From a virus (taxonomy: Duplodnaviria; Heunggongvirae; Uroviricota; Caudoviricetes), in IMG/VR virus record IMGVR_UViG_3300044796_000656: 64,000 bases of DNA; one strand, written 5' to 3'. Position 1 is the first letter of the stretch; every line of letters starts with the position of its first letter. Position numbers and translations under genes: made by a program. The notes under the pieces are model-generated. The model ran no database searches, had not been told where the DNA came from, and saw only the letters and a list, made by a program, of their open reading frames with translations. This document shows positions 7,013 through 33,757 of this stretch, piece after piece.

Positions 7013-8626
7013 ATGACTTTCTGGAAGCGAATCACGAAGTTTGCCAACTGTCTGGTTGGCACGGCGGCGCTAGTCGCTCGCGACAACTTCGTTGATGTCG
7101 CGATGGCGCTCACTATGCCGCAGGTCAATAACAAGTTGCAGTTGATGTTCCCACCCCGGCCGCAGAGCGCGTTCTTATCACAGCGCCTCGCGGCCCGGAC
7201 GGTGGACGGAGCCGTACTCGAAGGCCAGGAAGGCTGGCAGAAGCTGGCCATCAGGAAGGGCCTGCCTGATTCTAATACAAAGGAGAAGCGCCTTGGGATT
7301 GAAAACGAACCGCACCGAGTCGATGGCTTCTCGGGCAAGATTGAAGAAGGCTACGGCAAGGGCACGAAGCAGTTGCTCACTGATGAAACAGTCGTGGTCA
7401 AGGTCAACGGACAGACACGCTTTGCTCGTCTCAACTACCATCAACACGATGCAGAACGGGCGGGCCTTCATTACGACCTTGTCGTTGAAGGAGTTCGTCC
7501 AGGAACTCCTAAATGGGAACTGCACGTTCCCCGAGGAGATTACAAAGGACGCTACGCATTCATTCAAACTCCCCGAGGCATGCTGATCAACCTCATGCGG
7601 GATCATGGTGAGCAGTTTGCCAAGCCCGCGATGACGTTGAAAGATGAAGCATTCCTGGATTATGTGCAGGCCAATCGAAGCCTGTACGACATCACCGGCA
7701 AAAAAGATGGTGCGTCTGCTTCAGTAACGATCGCTAATTATCGTGCCCACTTCCGTTCCCATCGGGACGGCGGCCAGACTTACTATGACCGGCTGCCTGA
7801 ACTGGAATTCATCAACAATCGAGCGCCGTTCATGCTGTACCGGAAGTTGTTCCCCGGCCCCGGTCAGAATGGCACGAAGTTGGTTGGCGAACTAGTTCAT
7901 CTCGATGGCGCCGCGCGCCAGGGCGGCATTCTGAATTCGTTGCCCGATAAGGCCGTTAAGATCCAGATCGAGCGCGGCCACAGCGAATTCTACGCCTGGG
8001 ACATCGAACGATTCCGAGGGCGCGACCTGTCTCGTATGTCGTTCGCAAAGCGTGAGCGTTACTTGAACGACGCCATTGCTGAGATCGGGCGTTACAACAG
8101 GCACTATCACAGCGTCGAGCATTGCCCGGACAGTATGACTGCCAGGGAGTTCTACGAGTATATCGTTGCCCAGGATCTGCCACACGGTGAGGGCGTGGTC
8201 ATCAAGCCAAAGAACTCGATAGACCGTTCGTGGATCAAGATCAAACGCAGTGACACGATCGATCTGAAAGTCGTCAAGGTCTTGGAAGGCAAGCCTGGAA
8301 CGAAGTACGAAGGTTCTGCCGGTTCTCTGATCGTTGAAGGACCCACGGGCGAACAGGGCAGAGTTGGCAGCTTCCGAGTTGACGACCAGCAGAGGCAGTG
8401 GATCTTCGATAACCAAGATCTCCTGGAAGGTCAGATTGCTGAGATTGAGGCCTTTGAGATGACCGAGCGCGGTGTACCGCGCGCCGGGCGTTTCGTTAGA
8501 TGGCATCCCTCGAAGTCCGAGGGCGCTCTGCTGATGTACGCCGAGACCTTGAGCGGCGGCGAAAGCCGGGAAGCCATGATGAATACTAAGTACGCGCTAA
8601 TTCAAGCAGTTAGGAGAGCCGCGTAA
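7013..8626 (+). CDS. ATP-dependent ligase (nucleotidyltransferase motifs I, IV, V) with an N-terminal domain resembling the LigD 3'-phosphoesterase module
   Basis: Motifs GKKDG (KxDG), EGVVIK and WIKIK. The N-terminal part (LHYDLVVEG...WELHVPRG) resembles the LigD phosphoesterase HYDxRLE / WAVPKGPS motifs. Confidence 0.7.
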   Translation: MTFWKRITKFANCLVGTAALVARDNFVDVAMALTMPQVNNKLQLMFPPRPQSAFLSQRLAARTVDGAVLEGQEGWQKLAIRKGLPDSNTKEKRLGIENEPHRVDGFSGKIEEGYGKGTKQLLTDETVVVKVNGQTRFARLNYHQHDAERAGLHYDLVVEGVRPGTPKWELHVPRGDYKGRYAFIQTPRGMLINLMRDHGEQFAKPAMTLKDEAFLDYVQANRSLYDITGKKDGASASVTIANYRAHFRSHRDGGQTYYDRLPELEFINNRAPFMLYRKLFPGPGQNGTKLVGELVHLDGAARQGGILNSLPDKAVKIQIERGHSEFYAWDIERFRGRDLSRMSFAKRERYLNDAIAEIGRYNRHYHSVEHCPDSMTAREFYEYIVAQDLPHGEGVVIKPKNSIDRSWIKIKRSDTIDLKVVKVLEGKPGTKYEGSAGSLIVEGPTGEQGRVGSFRVDDQQRQWIFDNQDLLEGQIAEIEAFEMTERGVPRAGRFVRWHPSKSEGALLMYAETLSGGESREAMMNTKYALIQAVRRAA

Positions 8627-8884: not shown

Positions 8885-10039
8885 TTGGAAACTGAATCCT
8901 GTGTTTTACATTGCGATAAGGGAAGCTCAGATAAGATCTACCAGGCCCAGCTAGTCCCGGAGGGTGCAGGCTGGGTCGTGAAGTATCAATTCGGCCGCCG
9001 GACGCCCGGAACAACCTGCGGCATCAGTGGCATGCAGGTCGGGGAGAAGACGGATCATCCCAGCGTTTACGGATATGCCAAGAAAGTCTACGACGATCTG
9101 ATCGACAAGCAGATCCGCGTCAAGAAGTACCACGTACTCAGCTCGACCAGCGGCGAATCGGCCGATGCAATAGCAGTTCCCAACAAGGTCGCCAGGGAAG
9201 ATTCAGGAATCTGTCCGATGTTGCTGACAGCCATCGACCAGCCGGAACTTCAGAAGCTCGCTTGTAATCCGTCCTGGTGTTTCCAGGAGAAGAAAGACGG
9301 CGAACGCCGACTGCTCAGGAACGACATAACTGGTGTCGTTGCCATCAATCGCAACGGCGAGATCACGACGCTGCTACCGAACATCGAGAAGGTTGCGGAG
9401 GACATTCTCGCCAGCTTCATCATCGACGGCGAAGAAGTAGGCGATCAGGAATTCGCCTTCGATCTTCTGGAACTCGACGGAGTCGATTGGCGGAAGAAGC
9501 CAATGAAGGAACGTTGGCTGAAACTTGCCGGCTTGAATATTCCCCAGGGCAATGCCGGGATCGTTGTCGTCGAGACGGCGTTCACCACTGTCGCCAAGGA
9601 GGAGATGATCATCCGCGCCGAGGTCGAGAAGTGGGAAGGCATCGTCGCCAAGATGGTCAGCGCCCCCTATGAAGAAGGCAGATCCAAGAAAGCCCAGAAG
9701 TTCAAGTTTAAAGCCAGCGGGACCTTCCTGGTGGACAAACAGAACGAAGACAAGAACGGCGTGAAGAAGCGCAGCGTGGCTTTGCTGGTCCACAGCGGCG
9801 AAGGTTACAACTGGCAGCCGGTCGGTAACGTGACGATCCCGGCCAACTTCGAGATCCCGCCTGACGGCTCGTTCGTTGAGATCGAGTATCTGTACGTCAA
9901 GGGCCGCGGTGGGTCTTTGTACCAGCCGGTCTACAAAGGCGTACGCGCGGACATCGGCGGTCCCTTTGGAACCAAGGCCGAGTCGGTCGATACGCTGAAG
10001 TATCGTCAAGGCTCTACCGAAGACGACGAGGAAGCATGA
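8885..10039 (+). CDS. WGR-domain ATP-dependent DNA ligase
   Basis: TTG start. N-terminal W-G-R signature (AGWVVKYQFGRRTPG). Ligase motifs EKKDGER (I), IIDGEEV (III), EGIVAK (IV) and KFKFK (V). Confidence 0.8.
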   Translation: METESCVLHCDKGSSDKIYQAQLVPEGAGWVVKYQFGRRTPGTTCGISGMQVGEKTDHPSVYGYAKKVYDDLIDKQIRVKKYHVLSSTSGESADAIAVPNKVAREDSGICPMLLTAIDQPELQKLACNPSWCFQEKKDGERRLLRNDITGVVAINRNGEITTLLPNIEKVAEDILASFIIDGEEVGDQEFAFDLLELDGVDWRKKPMKERWLKLAGLNIPQGNAGIVVVETAFTTVAKEEMIIRAEVEKWEGIVAKMVSAPYEEGRSKKAQKFKFKASGTFLVDKQNEDKNGVKKRSVALLVHSGEGYNWQPVGNVTIPANFEIPPDGSFVEIEYLYVKGRGGSLYQPVYKGVRADIGGPFGTKAESVDTLKYRQGSTEDDEEA

Positions 10040-11249: not shown

Positions 11250-11535
11250 TGAAACCAAGATCTTGATCGCGCAGGTCAGCCAGGTAATAACCAACGCGCT
11301 TCAGAATGACGAGAAGATGCTGGAATTATTCCAGCTCGTACGTGACCGTGGCTTTGAGATGACGGTGGCCGCCGAGGTCACCGTCGGACTACATGTGATC
11401 GAAGACTTTGAGCCATCGGAAGCCCCGGCACCCGGCCCAGAACTTGTGACCCCGAAGACGGGAAAGTTACTGAAGTTCTCTCCGCAGGACTCCAAGTTCT
11501 TGAAAACGATGAGGATATCACTCGATGATAAGTAA
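11233..11535 (+). CDS. hypothetical protein
   Basis: 100-aa ORF. Confidence 0.5.
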   Translation: MQEPNNETKILIAQVSQVITNALQNDEKMLELFQLVRDRGFEMTVAAEVTVGLHVIEDFEPSEAPAPGPELVTPKTGKLLKFSPQDSKFLKTMRISLDDK

Positions 11536-12079
11536 AGGAACAATCGGCGTCATAGGTGCTCGAACGCCCGGCCCGGAAGTCGAGTGCGGGATTCACAATC
11601 TCGTAGGCATCCTGCAATCTCGGGGATACACGATCTCAACCGGCCTTGCCGATGGAGTTGACCAGGCCGCCGCATTTGCCGCGTATCCTGGCCCGCTTGA
11701 GTTGTTCCTACCCTGGGACGGCTACGAAGCCGAAGCACTGCGGGAATTGCTGCAAGTCAATCCCAATATCACGGTCACGATCTACGATCCAAAGATTCAT
11801 CAAGCCTGGACAGACTCAGTCCTACGTTATCACCCAGCAGGGAATCGTCTGCGCCGCGGCGCTTTCGCGCTGCATGCTCGCAACTTCCCCATCGTTGAGA
11901 ACCGCAGGTTGGTCGTTGCTTTCCCCAGCGATAAGCCAGGAGGAGGCGGGACCGGACAGGGTATTCGTATCTGCACGGCTCTCAAGATTCCTCTGATAAC
12001 GCGCGTCGTTGGCGCTCCGGGATGGGACTTCGAAGAACTGACCAAAGCAGTGCTGTTGGAACTGGAAGGTGCGGCATGA
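11525..12079 (+). CDS. DprA/Smf-like (SLOG superfamily) Rossmann-fold protein
   Basis: TGLADGVDQAAAFAA and GGGGTGQGIRICTALKIPLIT match the DprA/LOG family glycine-rich motifs. Confidence 0.55.
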   Translation: MISKGTIGVIGARTPGPEVECGIHNLVGILQSRGYTISTGLADGVDQAAAFAAYPGPLELFLPWDGYEAEALRELLQVNPNITVTIYDPKIHQAWTDSVLRYHPAGNRLRRGAFALHARNFPIVENRRLVVAFPSDKPGGGGTGQGIRICTALKIPLITRVVGAPGWDFEELTKAVLLELEGAA

Positions 12080-12925: not shown

Positions 12926-13405
12926 ATGAAACGCTGGATATTGACAGACACGCATTGGAATCATGAAGCGATGATCACGCGTGGCTGGCGGCCAGCAAAT
13001 TATCAAGAGCGAAGCCTGGCGAATATCCGCAGACTGGTAGCACCGGAAGACAAAGTCCTTCACCTTGGAGATGTAATCTTCGCGCGGTCGGCGGAATTGC
13101 AGGCGATTCTTTTGAGCTTGCCAGGGATTTGGGAGCTGGTCAAGGGAAACCACGATCATCGCCGGGATCAATGGTATCGGGACATGGGTTTCGCAGCCGT
13201 TAACGATGCAGCAGTAATCGGTGACGTTTATCTGACGCATGAGCCCGCAGGCTGTTTGCTGCGGGATACCAGGCTCAACGTTCACGGGCATCTGCATGAC
13301 GATCTGCACCGGGTTGAAGAAGGTTATCCCGAACCGTGGCATAGACTACTTGCCTTAGAACTGACCGATTATTGTCCGGTCCTGTTCGACGAATTCACAA
13401 GGTAG
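12926..13405 (+). CDS. calcineurin-like metallophosphoesterase
   Basis: Motifs DTHWNH, GDVIFAR, GNHDH and GHLHDD. Confidence 0.7.
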   Translation: MKRWILTDTHWNHEAMITRGWRPANYQERSLANIRRLVAPEDKVLHLGDVIFARSAELQAILLSLPGIWELVKGNHDHRRDQWYRDMGFAAVNDAAVIGDVYLTHEPAGCLLRDTRLNVHGHLHDDLHRVEEGYPEPWHRLLALELTDYCPVLFDEFTR

Positions 13406-15320: not shown

Positions 15321-16334
15321 ATGAGTTTAGGACCACAAGCAAGCCTACTTGACATGACTCTGAAAGAGCAACACGCCAAGTATCTAGCAGCCGGACTTGT
15401 TTGCGACCTCTGGGATCGTCTGAACTTCCCAAGGGGAACCCAGTTAATCAAGCAAGCTCAAGACCATGGGTTTGATCTTCCCCAGGAAGTCATTCACATC
15501 TTCTGCGGCGGCTCTAACCTCCACGGCGCCAAAGACGATTCAGGGAAAAGCGATCTGGATATCTGCGGGATCTTCGTTGAACCCCCGGAGCTGGCGCTCG
15601 GGATCGACCGCGATGAGCACTTCATCTCGAAGACCGCGGCCGAAGGCGAACGCAATCAGTCCGGCGATAAAGACTTTACCATCTATTCGCTGCGCAAGTG
15701 GGCGGCTATGGCCTGCAATGGCAATCCCAACGCGCCGCTGTTCCTGTTCGCCCCCGTCGATCCCAAAGGCCAAACAACGGTCTGGGATGCCTATATACGT
15801 CCTAGCGCACATCTGTTCCTGGCCAAGACCACCCTGGTAGGGGATTACGCCAAAAGCGGCCTCTTGGGCTTCGCCAAGGGCATCTGGAAGCGCGCGGAGG
15901 CGGCGCTACGAGGCAAGGAATACCACGAAGCCGGAGGCTTCCTTGGATTTGCCCGCAACATGCTTTACAGGATGCAGGGCAAGCGCGGCCGGGGCAAGAA
16001 GGGGCAGCGGCCGGAACTGGAACTGAAGTTCGGCTACGACACCAAGGCGGCGATGCACATGATCCGCGCCATGTTTGAAGCCATTGAACTGGTCGAGACC
16101 GGGAAACTTGCGTTTCCTAATCGTCAGGTCGAAACCCTGAAGGCGATACGGCGCGGCGAGTGGTCAAAGACTGTCGTTGAGCAGTACTTCGAACAACTCG
16201 AAAGCGAACTGAAGAAACTGGTGCGAAAGTCTGACCTGCGCAAGGAAATTGATCGCGCGGCGGTTTCGAAGCTGGTATCTCGGGCGTACCTCGCCCATTG
16301 GAGACAACGTGAATTCTTTAAGCGTTCTCAATAG
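15321..16334 (+). CDS. Pol-beta superfamily nucleotidyltransferase
   Basis: CGGSNLHG-x8-SDLDICGIF matches the h[GS]x...[DE]h[DE]h nucleotidyltransferase signature. C-terminal helical region. Confidence 0.6.
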   Translation: MSLGPQASLLDMTLKEQHAKYLAAGLVCDLWDRLNFPRGTQLIKQAQDHGFDLPQEVIHIFCGGSNLHGAKDDSGKSDLDICGIFVEPPELALGIDRDEHFISKTAAEGERNQSGDKDFTIYSLRKWAAMACNGNPNAPLFLFAPVDPKGQTTVWDAYIRPSAHLFLAKTTLVGDYAKSGLLGFAKGIWKRAEAALRGKEYHEAGGFLGFARNMLYRMQGKRGRGKKGQRPELELKFGYDTKAAMHMIRAMFEAIELVETGKLAFPNRQVETLKAIRRGEWSKTVVEQYFEQLESELKKLVRKSDLRKEIDRAAVSKLVSRAYLAHWRQREFFKRSQ

Positions 16335-17139
16335 CAACGACATCAACTGGTGTTTGCACCGGTTGCCGAAACGAGTCAAAGCTCTCATGCAGGAATACGC
16401 AGGGCAGCTTGTTATGGCCGGCGGCTTCATACGGGCCTGCATCGCCAACGAACACATCAACGATGTGGACCTGTTTCCGGCCTCGAAAGAGTTGGCGCAG
16501 GTAATGGCCTTGAAGCTGGCCGGTGGCGACCTCAAGGGCGTCTACGAAACGGAGAACGCCTACACGGTCTCGCGTCACCTGCCGATGAGCGTTCAGTTCA
16601 TCCATCGCTGGATCTTTGCGCAGCCGGAAGAGATTCTGCCGAGTTTCGATTTTACGATCGCTCAGGCGTCGATCTGGTTCGAAGCCTTAGCGAGGGACGA
16701 AAATGGCAAAGTCGTTGACGGCGAATGGAAGTCGCTGTGCTCCGCCCAGTTCTACCCAGACCTGGCAGCCAAGCGATTGGTCTACCTGCAACCGATCCGC
16801 AATGAAGACGCTGGCGGCTCAATGCTGCGGGTCTTGAAGTTCTATCAGCGCGGGTATCGCATCCCGATCGATTCCCTTGGCCAGGTGATTAGCCGTCTGA
16901 TGACCGGAGTTGATATCAGTCGGATTCATACCGAACAAAAGAAGTTCGACAAGGATTCGGAGATCCCTGGATTGGTATTCGACGAACAGCAACTCAGTAA
17001 GGTCGTAACCGGGCTCTTGCGTGAGGTCGATCCTCTGATCGATCCGGCGCATGTTTCGCATCTGCCGGCGACCGAAGCGGTTGGCGTCGCTCGTGATGCT
17101 GGAATCAGTACGCGTGTGGAAAGCGGGTCGATTCAATGA
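16309..17139 (+). CDS. minimal CCA-adding/poly(A)-polymerase-family nucleotidyltransferase (head plus neck)
   Basis: LVMAGGFIRACIANEHINDVDLF aligns with GGAVRDxLLG..DxD. FDFTIAQA...DENGKVVD aligns with RDLTINALA..DDNGEIID. EDAGGSMLRVLKF aligns with EDPLRVLRVARF. GTG start overlaps the upstream gene. Confidence 0.65.
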   Translation: MNSLSVLNSNDINWCLHRLPKRVKALMQEYAGQLVMAGGFIRACIANEHINDVDLFPASKELAQVMALKLAGGDLKGVYETENAYTVSRHLPMSVQFIHRWIFAQPEEILPSFDFTIAQASIWFEALARDENGKVVDGEWKSLCSAQFYPDLAAKRLVYLQPIRNEDAGGSMLRVLKFYQRGYRIPIDSLGQVISRLMTGVDISRIHTEQKKFDKDSEIPGLVFDEQQLSKVVTGLLREVDPLIDPAHVSHLPATEAVGVARDAGISTRVESGSIQ

Positions 17140-17450
17140 GAGACGAAAAGAGGGTGGTCGTGGACAGGATCTTCGAGAGGACTCGCGATAACGTCGTTTT
17201 AACGATCGCCGCTGCATTTCTCGATGATCCCTTCACGTATGGCATTCCGATTCAAACCAGCGGCGGCTTGGTGATCCTGCATCCGTTTCGTAACGCCTTT
17301 CGGGATGCTTGTCAGTTTGCATACGTCTGGTTGCCTCTGGTCGGAACGTTCTGCATGAACAGCGTCGAACCTCTTCATCTCGACAAGACGCCGATCTGCA
17401 AGGAAATCGACGGTCTTATGGAAGACCGTGGCTACGAGGTTACGCTGTAA
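17136..17450 (+). CDS. hypothetical protein
   Basis: 104 aa. Confidence 0.45.
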   Translation: MRDEKRVVVDRIFERTRDNVVLTIAAAFLDDPFTYGIPIQTSGGLVILHPFRNAFRDACQFAYVWLPLVGTFCMNSVEPLHLDKTPICKEIDGLMEDRGYEVTL

Positions 17451-17833
17451 TGCGGATTCTAGGAAAGACCAGTCGGGTCCTGGCATTGCTGGTAGTGCTG
17501 ATTTTCAAGCTCTTCTTTCTGCCAGTGACTCTGCTGGCAAAGCCAGTTACGGGTTTGGTTAGTTGGTACGGGCAGAAGTTCGCTGGAAAGAAGATGGCGA
17601 ACGGTGAGAAGTTTGATCCATCCAAGTTGACGGCTGCTCATCGCAGTCTTCCGTTCGGCACGCAGGTCCGCCTGATTTGTCGAAAGACACAACGGGAAGT
17701 CATCGTCACGATCACCGATCGAGGGCCGGTGCAGAAGACTCGAACGCTGGATATCTCCAGGGCCGCGGCTGATGCCCTGGGAATTCGTGACCGAGGAATC
17801 GCGCGCGTCGAGATTGAGCCGCTGAAACGATAG
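17450..17833 (+). CDS. RlpA-like double-psi beta-barrel protein with signal peptide
   Basis: GLVSWYGQKFAGKKMANGEKFD...AAHRSLPFGTQVRL...DRGP matches the RlpA DPBB signature. N-terminal hydrophobic signal. Confidence 0.65.
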   Translation: MRILGKTSRVLALLVVLIFKLFFLPVTLLAKPVTGLVSWYGQKFAGKKMANGEKFDPSKLTAAHRSLPFGTQVRLICRKTQREVIVTITDRGPVQKTRTLDISRAAADALGIRDRGIARVEIEPLKR

Positions 17834-17848
17834 GTACATCGTACCGCC
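17834..17848. promoter_or_regulatory. copy 2 of conserved intergenic motif TAGGTACATCGTACCGC
   Basis: Identical 17-mer to 22061..22078, positioned right after the stop codon. Confidence 0.5.
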
Positions 17849-17912
17849 GACGCTTTGACAGGAATCAACGATCAGCTACATTGAGGTCGTTGTAGTAAAA
17901 AAGGAGAACTAC

Positions 17913-18776
17913 TTGAGAATGACGAATTATGGTGATCCGGGAACGATAGTTCAGGAAAAGACCAGTAAGACGAAGTTGATCAAGGTCCTGGCCGGCGGAG
18001 TCATCGGAGTAGTGGTATTCTTGACGTCCTTCATGGTCGGTTGCATGTCCATGGTCACGATTCCGGCCGGACACGTAGGCGTGGTCACGAAGTTTGGCCG
18101 CGTTACCGGACAGATGGTTTATGAGGGCATGCATTTCCTGAATCCCGTCGTCGCCGTCGAAAAGATGGACACACGGACGATCGAGCTGAAAGAGAAAGCC
18201 GATGTGCCTTCGGCTGAAGGACTCTTGATCGGCTTGGAAGCCTCGCTTCTTTTCCATCTGGACCCCGCCGCGGCGCCCAAAGTCTACCAGTCGATCGGCG
18301 TGGATTACCGCGCGAAAGTTGTCGAGCCCATATTGAGATCCGCGATGCGTGAGGCTACGGCGTCCCATTCGGCGAACGCGCTTTACTCGAAAGAACGCGA
18401 CCAGGTACAGGCTGAAATCGTGGCCGCGGTTACCAGCCAGCTTGGCGTACGCGGCATCGTTGTTGAACGCATCTTGCTGAGAGACATTGCATTGCCGGCG
18501 GCGCTCAAGTCCTCGATTGAGTCCAAGCAGCAGGCCGAACAGGAATCTTTGGCAATGCAGTTCAGACTCCAGAAGGAAAAGCAGGAGGCTGATCGCAAGC
18601 GAATCGAGGCCCAGGGAATCAAAGATTTCCAGGCAATCGTATCGCAGGGCATCAGCGAACCTCTTCTGCGCTGGAAAGGTATTGAAGCGACCGAGAAGCT
18701 GGCCTACAGCCCGAATTCCAAAATCGTGATCATCGGCAGCGGCAAAGATGGAATGCCGTTGATTCTCGGGCACTAA
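17913..18776 (+). CDS. SPFH/band-7 (prohibitin/HflK-like) membrane protein
   Basis: N-terminal TM helix followed by the characteristic SPFH core (VPAGHVGVVTKFGRV...) and a coiled-coil tail. Confidence 0.7.
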   Translation: MRMTNYGDPGTIVQEKTSKTKLIKVLAGGVIGVVVFLTSFMVGCMSMVTIPAGHVGVVTKFGRVTGQMVYEGMHFLNPVVAVEKMDTRTIELKEKADVPSAEGLLIGLEASLLFHLDPAAAPKVYQSIGVDYRAKVVEPILRSAMREATASHSANALYSKERDQVQAEIVAAVTSQLGVRGIVVERILLRDIALPAALKSSIESKQQAEQESLAMQFRLQKEKQEADRKRIEAQGIKDFQAIVSQGISEPLLRWKGIEATEKLAYSPNSKIVIIGSGKDGMPLILGH

Positions 18777-18799
18777 CAAGAATGCAGTCGAGGGGGAGC

Positions 18800-19100
18800 G
18801 TCGGCAGGCGCATAGAACCTTCGGTTGCTGGAGCGACAAAAGGGTTTATGCCCTTGCGCCGGCCGATATCACCGGCGCCTAGCTCCTCGAATTTGGAAGT
18901 ACAAGAATGCAGGGAAGGATCATGGGAAACGGAGTGGCGCTGGCGCCTGATTCGCGCCGGTTGTTCACACCGGCTCTGGGTTCGAGAAGTGCGGTTCGAT
19001 TCCGCTCGCTGGCCGAGGCTTGGTAGGACGGGAGGCATGGTTCGATTCCTGCTGATTCGGGTTCGCACGGCGCGTGTGAGCTAACTCTGGTGAGCAATGG
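18800..19100 (+). ncRNA. unresolved structured-RNA region with tRNA T-loop-like GGTTCGATTCC motifs
   Basis: 530-nt gap with only R-rich or antisense ORFs. Two GGTTCGATTCC and one GGTTCGAG T-loop-like sequences. A GGCGC-CTGATTC-GCGCC hairpin with a 7-nt loop. I could not close canonical acceptor stems by hand. Confidence 0.25.
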
Positions 19101-19313
19101 CCTGACAGTCGGGAAAGACCGACACCGAATTTATGAGTTTGCGGAACAGTAAGACTGAGGGATCGGTAGACCGGCTGGTAATCGGCCGGATTGTGGTCAC
19201 GCATCACAAGAGCCCAAAGACCGTACGGTTTAAGTCGATGACAAGGAGCCATTCCGTAAAGATGGCGATGATCTCGATTCGATCTGTTCCGCGATTAAGT
19301 TCTTAGGAGAGTT

Positions 19314-20555
19314 ATGAGCCAATTTGACGTCATCGACGCCGAGGACGGCAAGATCATCAAGATCTGGGCACGCGGCGTCCAGGTCGAAGACAAGGCAATC
19401 GAGCAGCTCAAGAAGACCGCGTCTTTGCCTTTTATCTATCGCTGGGTTGCTGCCATGCCGGATTCTCACTGGGGTATGGGCGCGACCATTGGTTCGGTTG
19501 TCGCAACCAAGGGTGCGATTATCCCCGCAGCAGTCGGCGTGGACATCGGATGTGGCATGATGGCCGTGAAGTTGAATCTGACACTCGGCGACCTGGGGAA
19601 CATCGCTCTTGGTACGTTGAGGGCTGCGATCGAAAAAGCAGTTCCAACCGGCCGGACGAACAATGGCGATCGCAAGTCAGATCGTGGTGGCTGGCAAAAC
19701 GTACCAGATGCTGTGGATCACATTTGGTGCCGAGACTTATCAACAGACTTTGCAGATATCCTCGAAGCGAATCCAGGTGCTAAGCCGATGAACGATGTAA
19801 ATCACCTGGCTACACTGGGAACCGGTAATCATTTCATCGAGTTGGTCTACGATGAAACCGGTCAACTTTGGGTCATGTTGCATTCTGGATCGCGCGGCCC
19901 GGGGAACAAGTTCGGTGTCTACTTTGTGAAGTTGGCGAAGGAGATATGCAAACGCTGGTTCATTCAGCTCCCTGATCCTGATCTTGCGTACATCCCGGAG
20001 GGAACTCCTGAGTACGCCCGCTACATGAAGGCGTTGCACTGGTCGATGAAGTTCGCCTGGCACAATCGGATACTTATGATGGAACGCATCATTGCTGGTC
20101 TTCAGCAGGTGATTCCAAGTCTCGATACCAGGGATGAATCGGTCCACTGCCATCACAACTACGCCGCGATGGAGAAGCATTACGGCCAGGAAGTCATGGT
20201 TACGCGCAAAGGGGCCGTGCGCGCCCAGCGCGACGAGCTGGGGATCATCCCAGGGTCGATGGGTACTCGCAGCTACATCGTGCGCGGGAAGGGCTGCCAG
20301 GACTCATTCCAGTCGTGTTCTCACGGCGCCGGCCGCGCCATGGGGCGCAAGGAAGCCCTGAAGCGGTTTACCCTCGAAGACCATATCAAGGCTACCGAGG
20401 GAATCGAGTGCGCGAAGGACGTTTCCGTTTTGGATGAGACGCCCCTTGCGTATAAAGATATAGACAGCGTGATGGCGGCGCAGACAGACCTCGTCGAGAT
20501 CGTGCATACGTTCAAACAGCTTATCTGCGTCAAAGGCGCAGGGGATGGAGAATAG
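19314..20555 (+). CDS. rtcB: RtcB-family RNA 3'-phosphate/5'-OH ligase
   Basis: Motifs MPDSHWGMG, VGVDIGCGM, GTGNHFIEL, HSGSRGPG and CSHGAGR. Confidence 0.85.
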   Translation: MSQFDVIDAEDGKIIKIWARGVQVEDKAIEQLKKTASLPFIYRWVAAMPDSHWGMGATIGSVVATKGAIIPAAVGVDIGCGMMAVKLNLTLGDLGNIALGTLRAAIEKAVPTGRTNNGDRKSDRGGWQNVPDAVDHIWCRDLSTDFADILEANPGAKPMNDVNHLATLGTGNHFIELVYDETGQLWVMLHSGSRGPGNKFGVYFVKLAKEICKRWFIQLPDPDLAYIPEGTPEYARYMKALHWSMKFAWHNRILMMERIIAGLQQVIPSLDTRDESVHCHHNYAAMEKHYGQEVMVTRKGAVRAQRDELGIIPGSMGTRSYIVRGKGCQDSFQSCSHGAGRAMGRKEALKRFTLEDHIKATEGIECAKDVSVLDETPLAYKDIDSVMAAQTDLVEIVHTFKQLICVKGAGDGE

Positions 20556-21004
20556 TCGGTGCCAATCTACGGCGGTGGCCCGGCGACTTCCTGGACGTGC
20601 AAGCACTGTGCGGGCGTGATGCGTCTCCAATCGGCGACGCCTGTATGTGGAACACATCGGCTTGCCGGGACTGGAAACGATACACGGATAAGGACTTCAA
20701 CGTAGGTCACCTATACTAACCTTAGATGATCTGCAAGTTACATCGACGGCAATCCCCTAACCGGGATGACGGTCCTAGTCAGGGACGCCGTTCTTGAGGT
20801 TCGCGGCTGACTAACGTGGTCAGCGTAGTAGCTGCGGGTACAGGGGAGCCTCAGGGAGGCGTAGAACCCGAGGCCCCAGTGCGAACCAAGAGTTATGCAG
20901 GTGAGCGGTGCAATACCTGTCACGGTGACGTGGCGGGCGGCTTTACCCGGAGGACTCGAACCTGAGTCGGCTGCCGGACCCGACCGCGAATCTGCTCCTG
21001 ATTT

Positions 21005-21401: not shown

Positions 21402-21971
21402 ATGATCGTTTTCAATTTAATCGGCGGCCCGGGCGCCGGGAAGTCAACCGCCAGTGCGGCCCTCTTCGTTGCCCTCAAGAATAAAGGCGTACGCGCGGAA
21501 CTCGTCGGCGAAGCTGCCCGAGAGGTTATCTACGACGGCCGTACGGCCTTCCTGGGCAACCAGCTCCTGATGCTCGGCATGCAATACGAGCGTGTTCGCC
21601 GGCTGGCGCGGTCTGGCTGCGACGTGGCGATCTGTGATTCACCGCTGATCCAGAACCCGTATTACGGGCGGGATCTTATTTATTACAAAGAACTCCAAGC
21701 GATTGCCGAGATCATCGATCAGGAATTCACGAATTACAATGTCTGGGTGAAGCGTACAACGCCGTTCGATTCTTTCGGCCGGGTTCAAAAGACAATCGAG
21801 GAGGCCGCCGAGTTTGACGAGATGGTCCGCAGTCTCTTCAAGGAAGACATCTGGCTGGATATCACCGGCGACGCCGAAGGCCAGCGGAAGCTCGCGGAAG
21901 CGGCGATTGCCCTGATTGCGCCGAATTACATCTGGGGACTTCCCGAGACTAAACTCCAAGTTGTCATGTAA
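21402..21971 (+). CDS. P-loop kinase (adenylate/polynucleotide-kinase-like)
   Basis: Walker A motif LIGGPGAGKST at the N-terminus. 189 aa. Confidence 0.6.
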   Translation: MIVFNLIGGPGAGKSTASAALFVALKNKGVRAELVGEAAREVIYDGRTAFLGNQLLMLGMQYERVRRLARSGCDVAICDSPLIQNPYYGRDLIYYKELQAIAEIIDQEFTNYNVWVKRTTPFDSFGRVQKTIEEAAEFDEMVRSLFKEDIWLDITGDAEGQRKLAEAAIALIAPNYIWGLPETKLQVVM

Positions 21972-26005: not shown

Positions 26006-26082
26006 TCTATGGCAGGCCAACAGCTTACTTGTACCGTTGGTATCTCGAAGAAGCCGGAGAACTCCGGTACAAAAGGAATGTC

Positions 26083-26637
26083 ATGAATACACCTTCAACT
26101 GCATGGGCACGTAAGTTCTTTGATCTCGCGCAACATATCTCAGGTTGGTCGAAAGACCGGAGCACAAAGGTCGGCGCGGTCATCTTCAATCCCGACACGC
26201 ACGCGATTCTATCGGTCGGTTACAACGGGTTTCCTCGCGGAGTACGAGATGACGCATCAGATGTTACGCCGATCCTAGTACAGCCATCGATGGACACTTG
26301 GAAGGGTATTTTCACAGATCAAGTTGCAATTGATTCCGAGATTGCTCGTATCGGGTCCAGGCACGAACGGCCGCTGAAGTATAAATGGACGGTCCATGCG
26401 GAAGAAAACGCGATCCTTAACTGCGCGCGGCATGGTATCCGTACCGAGGGCATGGCGATCGCCCTTCAGTGGTATCCCTGCATGCATCCCTGTGCTTGTG
26501 CCATTGTTCAGTCTGGCATCGAGACGGTGATCTGCACTAGGCCCGACTTTAACCATCCTCGATTCGGGGAAGAGTTCAAGTTGACCCATGAATTGTTCTC
26601 TGAAGTGAAACTTAACGTCGTCTACCTGGAGACCTAA
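26083..26637 (+). CDS. dCMP (deoxycytidylate) deaminase
   Basis: Zinc-binding motifs HAEENA and PCxxC (YPCMHPCACAI). Confidence 0.8.
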   Translation: MNTPSTAWARKFFDLAQHISGWSKDRSTKVGAVIFNPDTHAILSVGYNGFPRGVRDDASDVTPILVQPSMDTWKGIFTDQVAIDSEIARIGSRHERPLKYKWTVHAEENAILNCARHGIRTEGMAIALQWYPCMHPCACAIVQSGIETVICTRPDFNHPRFGEEFKLTHELFSEVKLNVVYLET

Positions 26638-27329
26638 TGACGATTACCTGCACGGTTCCTCTGCATGCGATTGACGAACGACTTGAACGTGAAGGTATTC
26701 GTCTCCGCCGGGATCGCTTCTTCATCCCGACTATGGCCATGAAAGACATTCTTGGACTGGGGATTGAACCCCGCGAACTGGCCGAAAAGTACATGACGTT
26801 TTATGAGACGATTCCTTTTTATAAGGTCTGCCCTGGGGGCGCCCAACACCATCATTGGTGGATAGGCGGCCTGGAGGATCACGTCAAGGAAATGATCGGC
26901 TGGATGTATGACCAGAAGAGACTCTACAAGAGCGACCTGGCTGGAGTCAGTTCCACGGATATTGTCGCCGCCGCGTTCCTACACGACCTCGACAAGATTT
27001 GGATATACCAGTTGTTAACACCCGAAGAGAAAGAGAAATCCAAGGGCAAGTACCACGAAAAGCAGGAGTTCCGTGGCGTCCAGACAGCCTTCCAGAAGGT
27101 CGATCCCCATTCCAAGATGTTGCTGGAGTTGGCCCGCTTCGGGATCGTCCCCACAGACGATCAATGGTCGGCGATCCTGTTTCACCACGGCGGTTTCTCG
27201 CCGGCGCACTTCCAATTCGGCGGGACCAGTTACACCGGCGAGTTCGTGAACAAGCGCAACCCGCTGGCGTGTCTGTTGTCGATGGCCGACCTGTACAGCT
27301 CGCAAATCCTGGGAAGGAGTCTTTCCTAA
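26637..27329 (+). CDS. HD-domain phosphohydrolase
   Basis: HHHWW...H...FLHDLDK matches the H..HD..D metal-binding pattern. Confidence 0.6.
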   Translation: MTITCTVPLHAIDERLEREGIRLRRDRFFIPTMAMKDILGLGIEPRELAEKYMTFYETIPFYKVCPGGAQHHHWWIGGLEDHVKEMIGWMYDQKRLYKSDLAGVSSTDIVAAAFLHDLDKIWIYQLLTPEEKEKSKGKYHEKQEFRGVQTAFQKVDPHSKMLLELARFGIVPTDDQWSAILFHHGGFSPAHFQFGGTSYTGEFVNKRNPLACLLSMADLYSSQILGRSLS

Positions 27330-27532
27330 TGTGCATGGCTTGCGTTGAAGCGGGAGCCTGGGTCGTTGCGGCTGGTGCCACTGTCTTGCCGTTGGTCATT
27401 CCGGCGATCCGAAAGAAATGCGAGAAGTTCATAAGCTGCGGTGGTGAAGTCAGGTCCAACACTACAGTCTGCAAAACTGTCATCGCGGGTTCAAATCCCG
27501 CCCGCAGCTCCACCGATCCCGCACTCGAATGA
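27329..27532 (+). CDS. small membrane protein
   Basis: One TM helix. 67 aa. Confidence 0.35.
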   Translation: MCMACVEAGAWVVAAGATVLPLVIPAIRKKCEKFISCGGEVRSNTTVCKTVIAGSNPARSSTDPALE

Positions 27533-31900: not shown

Positions 31901-32058
31901 ATGGAAAGCCCGCAGGTAACTCCCCAACAGATCCATAATTTGTGGCGTACGGGTAAAACCTTTAATGAGATCTGCGAGTTTACAGGTCTGAGTCTTCAAG
32001 CGGTAATGCAGGCATTTAATGCCCCGAGGAAACATGACAAAGAAACGAAGCCAAACTG
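31900..32058 (+). CDS. small protein (52 aa) with helix-turn-helix-like segment
   Basis: Translation reads TFNEICEFTGLSLQAVMQA. Confidence 0.3.
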
Positions 32059-32576
32059 AACCGCACCAGGTTTTCGGCGGAAGTCAAGGTGTGCCTAACA
32101 ATCGCCGTCGTATGGACCCTCCCGAGGAGAAACGGATCTACATCGTTGTTCCCCAGACGGTCCAGGTTCTTGGGAAGTCTGGTTTCCCGAGAAGTGCCCG
32201 CAAAGTGATGCGCAACTTCCGTATGGAACACGGCCGCCTGATGGCGCAGTGCGCGCATGTCGCGCGCCGGCTGGAGAACGAACAGCTCAACGAGAAGTTC
32301 TGGGACGAGAGAGACCCCAGTACTCGCAAGACATCTGCGTATAAAGAGATCACGACCATCGTTCTCAGCGTCCGTAACAGTCGGGAACTGGAGAAGGTCG
32401 CTGTCGAGGTCGCTCTGACCGGCGGCCGGAATCTGTATTTCCCGTTCGCCGACACCAATCCGGAGTTCTACGGGACCAGGGAGAAGGTCTTTACGGCCTT
32501 TGCCATCGGTCCGATCGAGCGCAGCAAGATCGATCCCGTACTCGGGCATCTTCCGCTCTATGGAGATCAGGCATGA
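32034..32576 (+). CDS. PTH2-family peptidyl-tRNA hydrolase
   Basis: GKSG...GRLMAQCAHVA aligns with the PTH2 GKGKIAAQCSHA motif. ...AFAIGP...GHLPLY aligns with VLAIGP..GHLKL. Confidence 0.6.
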   Translation: MTKKRSQTEPHQVFGGSQGVPNNRRRMDPPEEKRIYIVVPQTVQVLGKSGFPRSARKVMRNFRMEHGRLMAQCAHVARRLENEQLNEKFWDERDPSTRKTSAYKEITTIVLSVRNSRELEKVAVEVALTGGRNLYFPFADTNPEFYGTREKVFTAFAIGPIERSKIDPVLGHLPLYGDQA

Positions 32577-32917: not shown

Positions 32918-33276
32918 GTATCAACCAGCATTTGAATGCCACGATCGCCCTGATCCATGGCGACATGAAGTTGGTGCGGGAGATCCTGCGCTCGCCGGGG
33001 TCCGACGTCAAGAACGTACCGCAAGTCGTGAGTGCGTTGGCGCAGGCGTTGGATGAAGTACGCGCGGATGCGGTCACAGTTGCCAAACATGAGGCTGACA
33101 TTGCGTTGGTCATCAAGGAATTGACTGCCGTCCAGGTGGATTCCCTGGGCATAGAACCTGGTGAAAGTCTGACACCTGATCTGAAGAATTCGTTTATGAA
33201 CGGTGTGGAAGCCGTCGAGAAACTCATCAGTGACCGCATCAAGCGGCACAGGTACGAACTGCGTCATGACAATTGA
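32914..33276 (+). CDS. hypothetical protein
   Basis: 120 aa. Confidence 0.5.
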   Translation: MSINQHLNATIALIHGDMKLVREILRSPGSDVKNVPQVVSALAQALDEVRADAVTVAKHEADIALVIKELTAVQVDSLGIEPGESLTPDLKNSFMNGVEAVEKLISDRIKRHRYELRHDN

Positions 33277-33757
33277 ACTCTACGGTTCCAGTATCCTGCG
33301 CGAGGTGTGTGATCCGATCGAAGACTTCGGTTCCGACATGCTTATGAGCCTGGTGCGCGGGATGAAGGACGCGATGAACAGCAAAGAAGGTGCTGGTCTC
33401 GCCGCTCCCCAGGTCGGCTTCAATGAACGCATGTTCGTGTTGAACGAGCAGTTGGCCGGCGGAAAGTGCGATACCGTGATCTGCAATCCCGTGTTGCTGC
33501 GGGATATGGGCAAGGATGTCCAGCAGGAAGGCTGTCTCAGTGTTCCGGGTTTCTTTGAAAACGTCGAACGAAGCCGCAACATCGAGTTCGAGTATTTTAC
33601 GGCCGAGGGTATTCAAAAGCAGGTGTTCGTTTCCGGATTCCTTGCCCGATGCATTCAACATGAAATGGATCATCTGGACGGGAAACTGTTTGTCGATTAC
33701 CTGAACAAAGACCGCCAGAAGAAGATCGAGAAGGCGATGCGAAAACTACGGGGGTAA
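33266..33757 (+). CDS. def: peptide deformylase
   Basis: Motifs GAGLAAPQVG, EGCLSVPG and HEMDHLDG. Confidence 0.8.
   Translation: MTIELYGSSILREVCDPIEDFGSDMLMSLVRGMKDAMNSKEGAGLAAPQVGFNERMFVLNEQLAGGKCDTVICNPVLLRDMGKDVQQEGCLSVPGFFENVERSRNIEFEYFTAEGIQKQVFVSGFLARCIQHEMDHLDGKLFVDYLNKDRQKKIEKAMRKLRG

Follow-up and report, generated by a model that had tools for sequence, protein, structure and literature searches.

What does a small nucleotidyltransferase do when its gene lies among genes for RNA repair and translation? A 64,000-nucleotide stretch of Caudoviricetes DNA (IMG/VR record IMGVR_UViG_3300044796_000656; this whole stretch is called the window below) raises this question, because a gene starting at position 16309 follows the gene for an RlaP-family nucleotidyltransferase and lies 2.2 kb upstream of rtcB, which encodes the RNA ligase RtcB. 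The original prediction had placed the product of this gene (the 16309 product) in a kit for repairing cleaved tRNA 3' ends and anticodon loops. Judged by its sequence, the 16309 product is instead a short-form member of Gad2, a family whose founding member is an anti-Gabija factor, and RlaP and RtcB are an already described RNA-repair pair. The explanation that we favour, and hold to be reasonably probable as a whole, consists of two functional layers, an RNA-repair and translation set and a Gad2-type counter-defence enzyme, together with a tRNA-derived segment upstream of rtcB.

The family of the 16309 product does not appear in a routine domain scan. Neither the local Pfam nor the local NCBIfam copy gave a match; this Pfam copy does not hold the PF26128 model, and Gad2 of Bacillus phage SPbetaL7 itself matches nothing there. 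A large protein collection contains 1,554 relatives, and all 120 that were listed, among them a homologue 99% identical to the 16309 product, carry PF26128, the family named Gad2, as a precomputed annotation. Searching with tblastn, we found matches to the annotated Gad2 genes of SPbetaL6 and SPbetaL7 (E 5e-3), and a profile of 37 family members aligned to residues 14-164 of SPbetaL7 Gad2 over 148 columns (hhalign probability 97.4%, E 1.3e-11). The two phage-encoded proteins thus have homologous N-terminal nucleotidyltransferase domains, with GG...NDxD, FDFT and LLRV.K(F/Y) in common. An exhaustive profile search yielded 2,993 cluster representatives at 50% identity, the best-scoring 150 of which are mostly 220-320 aa long.

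Gad2 was described as the second Gabija anti-defence protein of SPbetaL7; its deletion leaves the phage sensitive to Gabija, inhibition of Gabija was demonstrated for SPbetaL7 Gad2 and for a Brevibacillus homologue, and the protein is a predicted nucleotidyltransferase that is toxic on expression (bioRxiv 10.1101/2023.05.01.538930). A paper of February 2026 still calls its mechanism unknown (PMC12904381). The 16309 product differs from Gad2 in length (276 aa against 400 aa) and in having an NE(D)AGGS insertion and an acidic, histidine-containing tail. The tail motif, GLLREVDPxxDPxHxxHLP (residues 235-253), shows little or no variation among the 37 family members that were aligned and has no counterpart in SPbetaL7 Gad2; docking and metal binding are possible functions.

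The 16309 product had been called a minimal head-neck member of the CCA-adding and poly(A)-polymerase family. It carries the motifs that were quoted, and its class II fold was borne out by structure prediction and structure comparison; the role in CCA repair was not supported. The AlphaFold model (mean pLDDT 85, pTM 0.79) has a head and a neck, with motif A (GGxxR...DxD), and the GG...DxD catalytic centre is intact; beyond the neck it has three short helices, with which it ends, and residues 240-270 are disordered. The best Foldseek matches in the PDB (E 2e-7 upward) are class II CCA-, CC- and A-adding enzymes, E. coli poly(A) polymerase and FAM46/TENT5, with aligned targets of 340-520 residues. 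Small head-neck proteins like this one are numerous in viruses and mostly uncharacterised.

In class II enzymes, motif B (RRD) selects ribose, motif D (EDxxR) templates the addition of C and A, and the body and tail domains bind the acceptor and T arm of tRNA. An hhalign alignment places motifs A, B and D of the 16309 family in register with those of E. coli Cca, but is not significant (probability 1%). In this alignment RRD is replaced by SFD and EDPLR by EDAGGS, so that an invariant Gly-Gly-Ser stands in place of the templating Arg. The Asp of ED varies within the family, whose motif reads E(D/E/A/Y)AGGS. The same two motifs set the 16309 product apart from the A- and CC-adding enzymes and from bacterial poly(A) polymerase I, as does the absence of body and tail domains from its model. 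PolyA_pol (PF01743) does not match it even at E 10, and a profile search of PDB sequences with the family returned CCA enzymes only, at a non-significant E of 0.65. Because RRD, EDxxR and the tRNA-binding domains are missing, PolyA_pol does not match and the protein belongs to Gad2, it is unlikely to be the CCA-end repair enzyme of the kit.

The genomic surroundings of the family were surveyed in 67 IMG/VR loci that encode relatives of the 16309 product, with up to 10 kb of flank on each side. In tblastn searches with the window proteins, RlaP was found at none of these loci (0/67) and RtcB at one (1/67). Pfam scans of the immediate same-strand neighbours identified PD-(D/E)XK nucleases, DUF2800, AAA_24, PolA, RecT, YqaJ, ERF, endonuclease VII, DnaB, primase and NUDIX proteins. 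The same replication and recombination surroundings were seen for Gad2-like genes on five metagenome contigs and in Xanthomonas phage FoX4, and family members lie mostly in early, replication or recombination regions. These surroundings fit the reported clustering of anti-defence genes in phage recombination loci (bioRxiv 10.64898/2026.07.10.737580). We also considered tRNA genes as regular neighbours and rejected them, as a tRNA lies within 10 kb in just 10 of the 67 loci. A small downstream ORF as a conserved partner was likewise rejected: the downstream ORFs of 68 loci do not cluster with the 104-aa ORF that follows the 16309 gene. The lists of cultured phages that carry Gad2-like genes and RlaP overlap in Bacillus only.

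The arrangement found in the window recurs in its closest relative, L007, the one close relative that shares it (L076 is identical to L007). The two alone have the gene order RlaP, Gad2-like gene, 104-aa ORF, RlpA-like gene, variable gene, intergenic segment and RtcB, and in each of them the Gad2-like gene begins before the RlaP gene ends. The placement of a Gad2-like gene after RlaP is specific to this phage lineage.

The first gene of this series, noticed in the original prediction for its Pol-beta motif (GS...SDLD), belongs to RlaP. It matches PF10127 (E 1.5e-16, 61.3 bits, cut-off 23) and phrog_388 (E 2e-46), and its catalytic GS...DLD motif is readable in the translation (CGGSNLHGAKDDSGKSDLDICG); a sequence search of solved structures gave no match to it. 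L007 has the same gene at the same position in the order. RtcB, 3 kb downstream on the same strand in an order that L007 retains, was likewise identified correctly at the outset (PF01139, E 1.2e-119, 400.7 bits, cut-off 27; phrog_1075, E 5e-134). Its motifs DIGCG, GNHF, HSGSRG, HHN and SHGAGR align with RtcB of Pyrococcus horikoshii and match at every position that we take to be a metal-binding Asp, Cys or His or the GMP-accepting His; on this alignment RtcB is catalytically complete. Over aligned segments it is 47-78% identical to RtcB of Caulobacter phage BL57.

The name of RlaP derives from its association with RNA ligases. A December 2025 preprint documents the association of RlaP with RtcB operons and reports that Pseudomonas RlaPs add one or two NMPs to RNA 3'-OH ends and are required to restore the function of tRNAs missing a nucleotide; as its authors note, the 3'-OH product of RlaP mismatches the requirement of RtcB for a 3'-phosphate (PMC12776372). 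In a survey of jumbo phages the distribution of RlaP follows that of RNA ligases, and such sets counter host ribonucleases (PMC7824862). The window resembles both the bacterial rtcB-rlaP-rtcA operons and the RNA-repair sets of large phages in having RlaP and RtcB on the same strand within a few kb, and it shares with the jumbo-phage sets the company of translation-rescue genes (PMC7824862, PMC12776372). It differs in that no RtcA or RtcR was seen in the RlaP-RtcB region or among the scanned ORFs of the window, that four unrelated genes and a non-coding segment separate RlaP from RtcB, and that a tmRNA gene directly follows rtcB.

This tmRNA, a P-loop kinase, a PTH2-type peptidyl-tRNA hydrolase and a peptide deformylase (PDF) had also been recognised beforehand, and ARAGORN, Rfam and Pfam found them at or near the expected places. 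The tmRNA scores 75.6 bits against RF04321 (cut-off 47), and the tag reading frame given by ARAGORN ends in ELAA. RlaP, RtcB, tmRNA, PTH2 and PDF make up a translation-maintenance island of the kind known from large phages, of which this is an ordinary, well-preserved case. It also resembles the tRNA and translation islands of phiCbK-like phages (Dolichocephalovirinae). In Brevundimonas phage Bajun, a homologue of the kinase (L077 5001-5513, annotated NadR-like, 34% identity) directly precedes an array of more than 25 tRNA genes that also contains PDF (35% identity). The order of kinase, tRNA and PDF is the same in the window, with RtcB and the tmRNA preceding the kinase; where Bajun has its array, the window has one tRNA, the tmRNA and degenerate T-arm elements. 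Beyond rtcB, no DNA-level synteny with phiCbK-like phages was found.

In our favoured explanation, RlaP would add one or two nucleotides to damaged RNA 3' ends, RtcB would join 2',3'-cyclic-phosphate or 3'-phosphate ends to 5'-OH ends, and both, with the tmRNA, PTH2, PDF and the one tRNA, would sustain translation when host ribonucleases cut tRNAs. The identities of these genes are observed, and the translation-sustaining role is, from what is known of their families, the most likely one. The proposed tRNA-repair kit survives as RlaP and RtcB with translation-rescue genes (PMC12776372, PMC7824862); the motifs, family and genomic context of the 16309 product speak against counting it as a member. 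Profile comparison shows that this protein belongs to the Gad2 family. We infer for it a counter-defence role of the Gad2 kind, in which it would blunt Gabija- or OLD-type defence by transferring nucleotides, untemplated, onto a nucleic-acid 3' end or another acceptor.

Several points weigh against this assignment. The tblastn match to SPbetaL7 Gad2 is a weak one (27.8% identity over 97 residues) and is confined to the catalytic domain; the profile alignment stops at Gad2 residue 164, and the C-terminal region of about 235 residues that follows in Gad2 is absent from the 16309 product, which has the invariant tail motif instead. The Gad2 label depends on precomputed Pfam annotation, and we found no literature report of a short-form member tried against Gabija. 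To our knowledge, the characterised enzymes of the class II head-neck fold all act on RNA 3' ends. In both phages with the arrangement, moreover, the gene overlaps RlaP and follows a good Shine-Dalgarno sequence (in the window, GGAG 6 nt upstream of a GTG start), and a functional coupling with RNA repair stays conceivable. Some of these points also speak for the first reading, in which the 16309 product, as a minimal enzyme adding CCA or A, would restore tRNA 3' ends in one kit with RlaP, RtcB and the kinase: the fold is that of class II enzymes, the motifs are colinear with those of E. coli Cca and human CCA enzymes, the gene order is identical in L007, and small head-neck proteins of other phages are annotated as tRNA nucleotidyltransferases. 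We nevertheless consider this reading decidedly unlikely, given the replaced RRD and EDxxR motifs, the missing domains, the non-significant CCA-enzyme matches, the near absence of RlaP and RtcB from related loci where DNA recombination and replication genes are the neighbours, and a founding family member that acts against Gabija. A small phage protein with the fold of a CCA-adding enzyme is not thereby a tRNA repair enzyme, and to annotate it as one is a mistake easily made.

An idea that lies between the two is that Gad2-family enzymes are RNA 3'-end nucleotidyltransferases acting on tRNA or tRNA fragments, so that the anti-Gabija effect itself would run via RNA. What speaks for it is that every characterised relative of the fold works on RNA and that no mechanism has been established for Gad2, but the wider family context points to DNA recombination modules and we rate it as very improbable. 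If it were true, Gabija-type OLD/Toprim nucleases would damage tRNA in vivo, as P2 Old and PARIS do, and the RlaP and Gad2-like pair upstream of a tRNA-like segment, RtcB and tmRNA would for the first time connect Gad2 with RNA repair at the genome level. Finally, RlaP, the Gad2-like enzyme, RtcB and the tmRNA may be independent accessory genes grouped by chance within 6 kb of a phage that reads from one strand. RtcB is indeed set apart from the nucleotidyltransferases by three unrelated genes, L007 differs in its SPFH slot and in its intergenic segment, and a near-identical recombination tract over the 5' end of rtcB marks the region as mosaic. Chance is unlikely all the same, because the association of RlaP with RtcB is well documented elsewhere, the RlaP...RtcB order is retained in L007, and kinase, tRNAs and PDF have the same order in Bajun as in the window. 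Two functional layers remain our preferred account, and they bear on Gad2. The only members of this family that have been tested defeat Gabija, and the family is very large, with some 3,000 clusters at 50% identity; its class II head-neck fold, the lost C- and A-templating residues, the invariant C-terminal tail and the usual location in recombination modules are clues to its mechanism.

A smaller remaining item is the degenerate T-arm segment upstream of rtcB. The gap between the nucleotidyltransferases and RtcB had been said to hold T-loop-containing RNA, and two T-arm motifs are indeed there: the exact sequence GGTTCGATTCC occurs only twice in the window, at 18993 and 19039, both within 18777-19313, where 0.15 occurrences per window are expected and two or more arose in 1 of 100 shuffles. 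The segment is not a canonical tRNA, a candidate that we rejected for this gap. ARAGORN found none at default settings; its relaxed mode drew a poor cloverleaf, a weak tRNA-Val with A.C and G.G in the acceptor stem and without the D-loop GG. Rfam matches are sub-threshold, the best being tRNA-Sec at 16.2 bits (cut-off 47) and, in L007, a mascRNA-like match at 16 bits. Compared with the Bajun tRNAs and with the rest of the window, the segment matches in the T-loop cores alone.

The segment is conserved in L007: 18928-19143 and L007 7273-7483 share 82% identity, about as much as the coding DNA on either side. Because the indels between the two have lengths of 1, 1, 2, 4 and 1 nt, which argue against coding, we regard it as non-coding. 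Besides the T arms it holds a hairpin with a 7-nt loop (18942-18958), in which a C-G pair has become T-A, and a 44-nt block (19081-19124) that is invariant between the two phages. T arm 1 changes in a compensatory manner from GCGG/CCGC in the window to GCAG/CTGC in L007, and T arm 2, whose stem is bulged in the window, forms a perfect GGGG/CCCC stem in L007. These patterns argue that the segment is constrained though non-coding. The intergenic region is longer in L007 (1.28 kb against 0.54 kb), with extra insertions at 7053-7272 and 7484-7923; the latter carries a third perfect T arm, GGGTTCGAATCCC, at 7599-7611, and ARAGORN finds no tRNA anywhere in L007.

We take the segment most likely to be the remains of a decayed tRNA array, as judged by analogy with the equivalent position in phiCbK-like phages. 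A decayed tRNA-derived segment is favoured because Bajun has a kinase, an array of more than 25 tRNAs and PDF, and the window has the same order with one tRNA. The phage may have kept these remains for a use in processing or regulation. A functional tRNA-like RNA linked to RtcB, be it a YrlA-like mimic, a nuclease decoy or an rtcB-leader sensor, is possible but doubtful. The excess of GGTTCGATTCC, the conservation at the level of coding DNA, the invariant block, the compensatory changes in two hairpins and the third T arm without an intact tRNA all speak for it, as do the bacterial rsr-yrlA-rtcBA operons, where tRNA-like Y RNAs adjoin rtcB. It is countered by the lack of any Rfam family near threshold, YrlA included, by a folding energy no better than that of shuffled sequences (z -0.67), by the mismatched acceptor stem and missing D-loop GG of the best cloverleaf, by the lack of a Ro/TROVE protein among the scanned ORFs, and by a length and content that differ between the two phages. 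A pattern search of viral contigs found no further copy, and a metagenome scan found only a contig identical to L007. The segment is thus known in two versions only, which weakens the case for a relic and the case for a functional RNA alike.

Features of the RlaP-RtcB region and of the downstream translation genes (positions in the window)
Feature	Position	Strand	Basis or remark
RlaP-family Pol-beta nucleotidyltransferase, 337 aa	15321-16334	+	PF10127, phrog_388
Short-form Gad2-family nucleotidyltransferase, 276 aa, class II CCA/PAP-like head-neck fold	16309-17139	+	overlaps RlaP gene by 26 nt
104-aa ORF, no recognisable family	17136-17450	+	start overlaps previous stop codon (ATGA)
RlpA-like double-psi beta-barrel protein, hydrophobic N-terminus	17450-17833	+	PF03330 DPBB_1, E 2e-22
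SPFH/Band 7 membrane protein, variable cargo	17913-18776	+	PF01145, E 1e-33
Two G+C-rich hairpins after SPFH gene	18805-18856, 18856-18878	+	read directly from sequence
Conserved 33-nt motif just upstream of T-loop segment	18896-18928	+	unique in window
Conserved non-coding segment with two tRNA-type T arms	18932-19130	+	T arms 18991-19005, 19035-19052
RtcB 3'-phosphate/5'-OH RNA ligase, 413 aa	19314-20555	+	PF01139, phrog_1075
Permuted (two-piece) tmRNA, tag peptide ...ALAMELAA	20984-21400	+	ARAGORN; Rfam RF04321
P-loop kinase-like protein (AAA_28/NadR-like)	21402-21971	+	PF13521, E 1.2e-10
tRNA-Cys(GCA), sole canonical tRNA in window	27435-27512	+	ARAGORN, Rfam
PTH2-type peptidyl-tRNA hydrolase	32019-32576	+	PF01981, E 2.1e-8, 34.8 bits, cut-off 23
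Peptide deformylase (PDF)	33203-33757	+	PF01327, E 5.8e-44

The first of the two hairpins upstream of the segment gives palindromic, sub-threshold Rfam matches on both strands. Positions 18902-18931, which cover most of the conserved motif, are 97% identical to L007 7023-7052. A 12-nt direct repeat, ACAAGAATGCAG, at 18776-18787 and 18901-18912 brackets a hairpin-rich piece of 113 nt just past the SPFH stop codon; its second copy starts the 33-nt motif conserved in L007, and the repeat may be a recombination junction or a promoter-like element. On the other side of the segment, the tract 19136-19555 takes in the leader of rtcB and about 240 nt at the start of the gene; its identity to L007 is 97-100%, against 57-88% in the flanks. 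This pattern suggests a recent recombination block. The near-100% identity of the leader was considered as a sign of an RNA element and rejected, as the identical tract continues through the first 240 nt of the rtcB coding sequence. Directly upstream of rtcB, the tract contains an ATG-initiated ORF of 57 aa (19133-19306).

Downstream of rtcB, the gap before the tmRNA (20556-20983) is ~430 nt long and has no convincing ORF; 20575-20851 is 73% identical to L007, and a T-loop-like GGTTCGAGTCC lies on the reverse strand at ~20953-20963. The kinase adjoins tRNA-type genes in two different phages, here directly downstream of the tmRNA and in Bajun at the tRNA array. A role as polynucleotide kinase is unsupported, the protein having just generic AAA_28 and weak APS-kinase similarity.

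The genes between the nucleotidyltransferases and rtcB are unrelated cargo. The 104-aa ORF has no Pfam, PHROG or NCBIfam match and was seen only in L007 and L008 outside the window, while the RlpA-like and SPFH products are membrane or periplasmic cargo. The start of the RlpA-like gene was chosen to agree with the 127-aa gene predicted in L007. Where the window has the SPFH gene, L007 carries an ORF of 405 aa for which no Pfam match is recorded, and the DNA of the two phages ceases to be similar at 17928, becoming so again at 18902. As the SPFH gene is replaced and DNA similarity is broken there, what lies between the nucleotidyltransferases and rtcB is a slot for variable cargo.

We treat the window as part of a large uncultured phage that is a distant relative of the phiCbK-like phages. 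Nearly all of its long ORFs are on the plus strand and its G+C content is ~55%; among cultured phages, DNA-level matches were confined to the rtcB gene of phiCbK-like Caulobacter phages (~71%). It encodes a class II ribonucleotide reductase, a RecD2-like helicase, a sliding clamp and DNA methylases, in addition to two ATP-dependent DNA ligases, a DprA-like protein, one tRNA and the permuted tmRNA. The ligase-like ORFs stand in tandem at 7013-8626 and 8885-10039 (phrog_114; for the first, a PDB DNA ligase match at E 1e-16) and next come the DprA-like protein (11525-12079) and, at 12926-13405, a metallophosphoesterase. As a group they resemble a module for DNA-end processing, a short way upstream of the RlaP region. 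We considered the two ligase-like ORFs as 5'-phosphate RNA ligases that would fit the 3'-OH product of RlaP and rejected this, since phrog_114 and the PDB DNA ligase matches identify them as ATP-dependent DNA ligases. Just upstream of tRNA-Cys, a dCMP/cytidine deaminase-like ORF (26029-26637) is followed by an HD-domain ORF (26637-27329).

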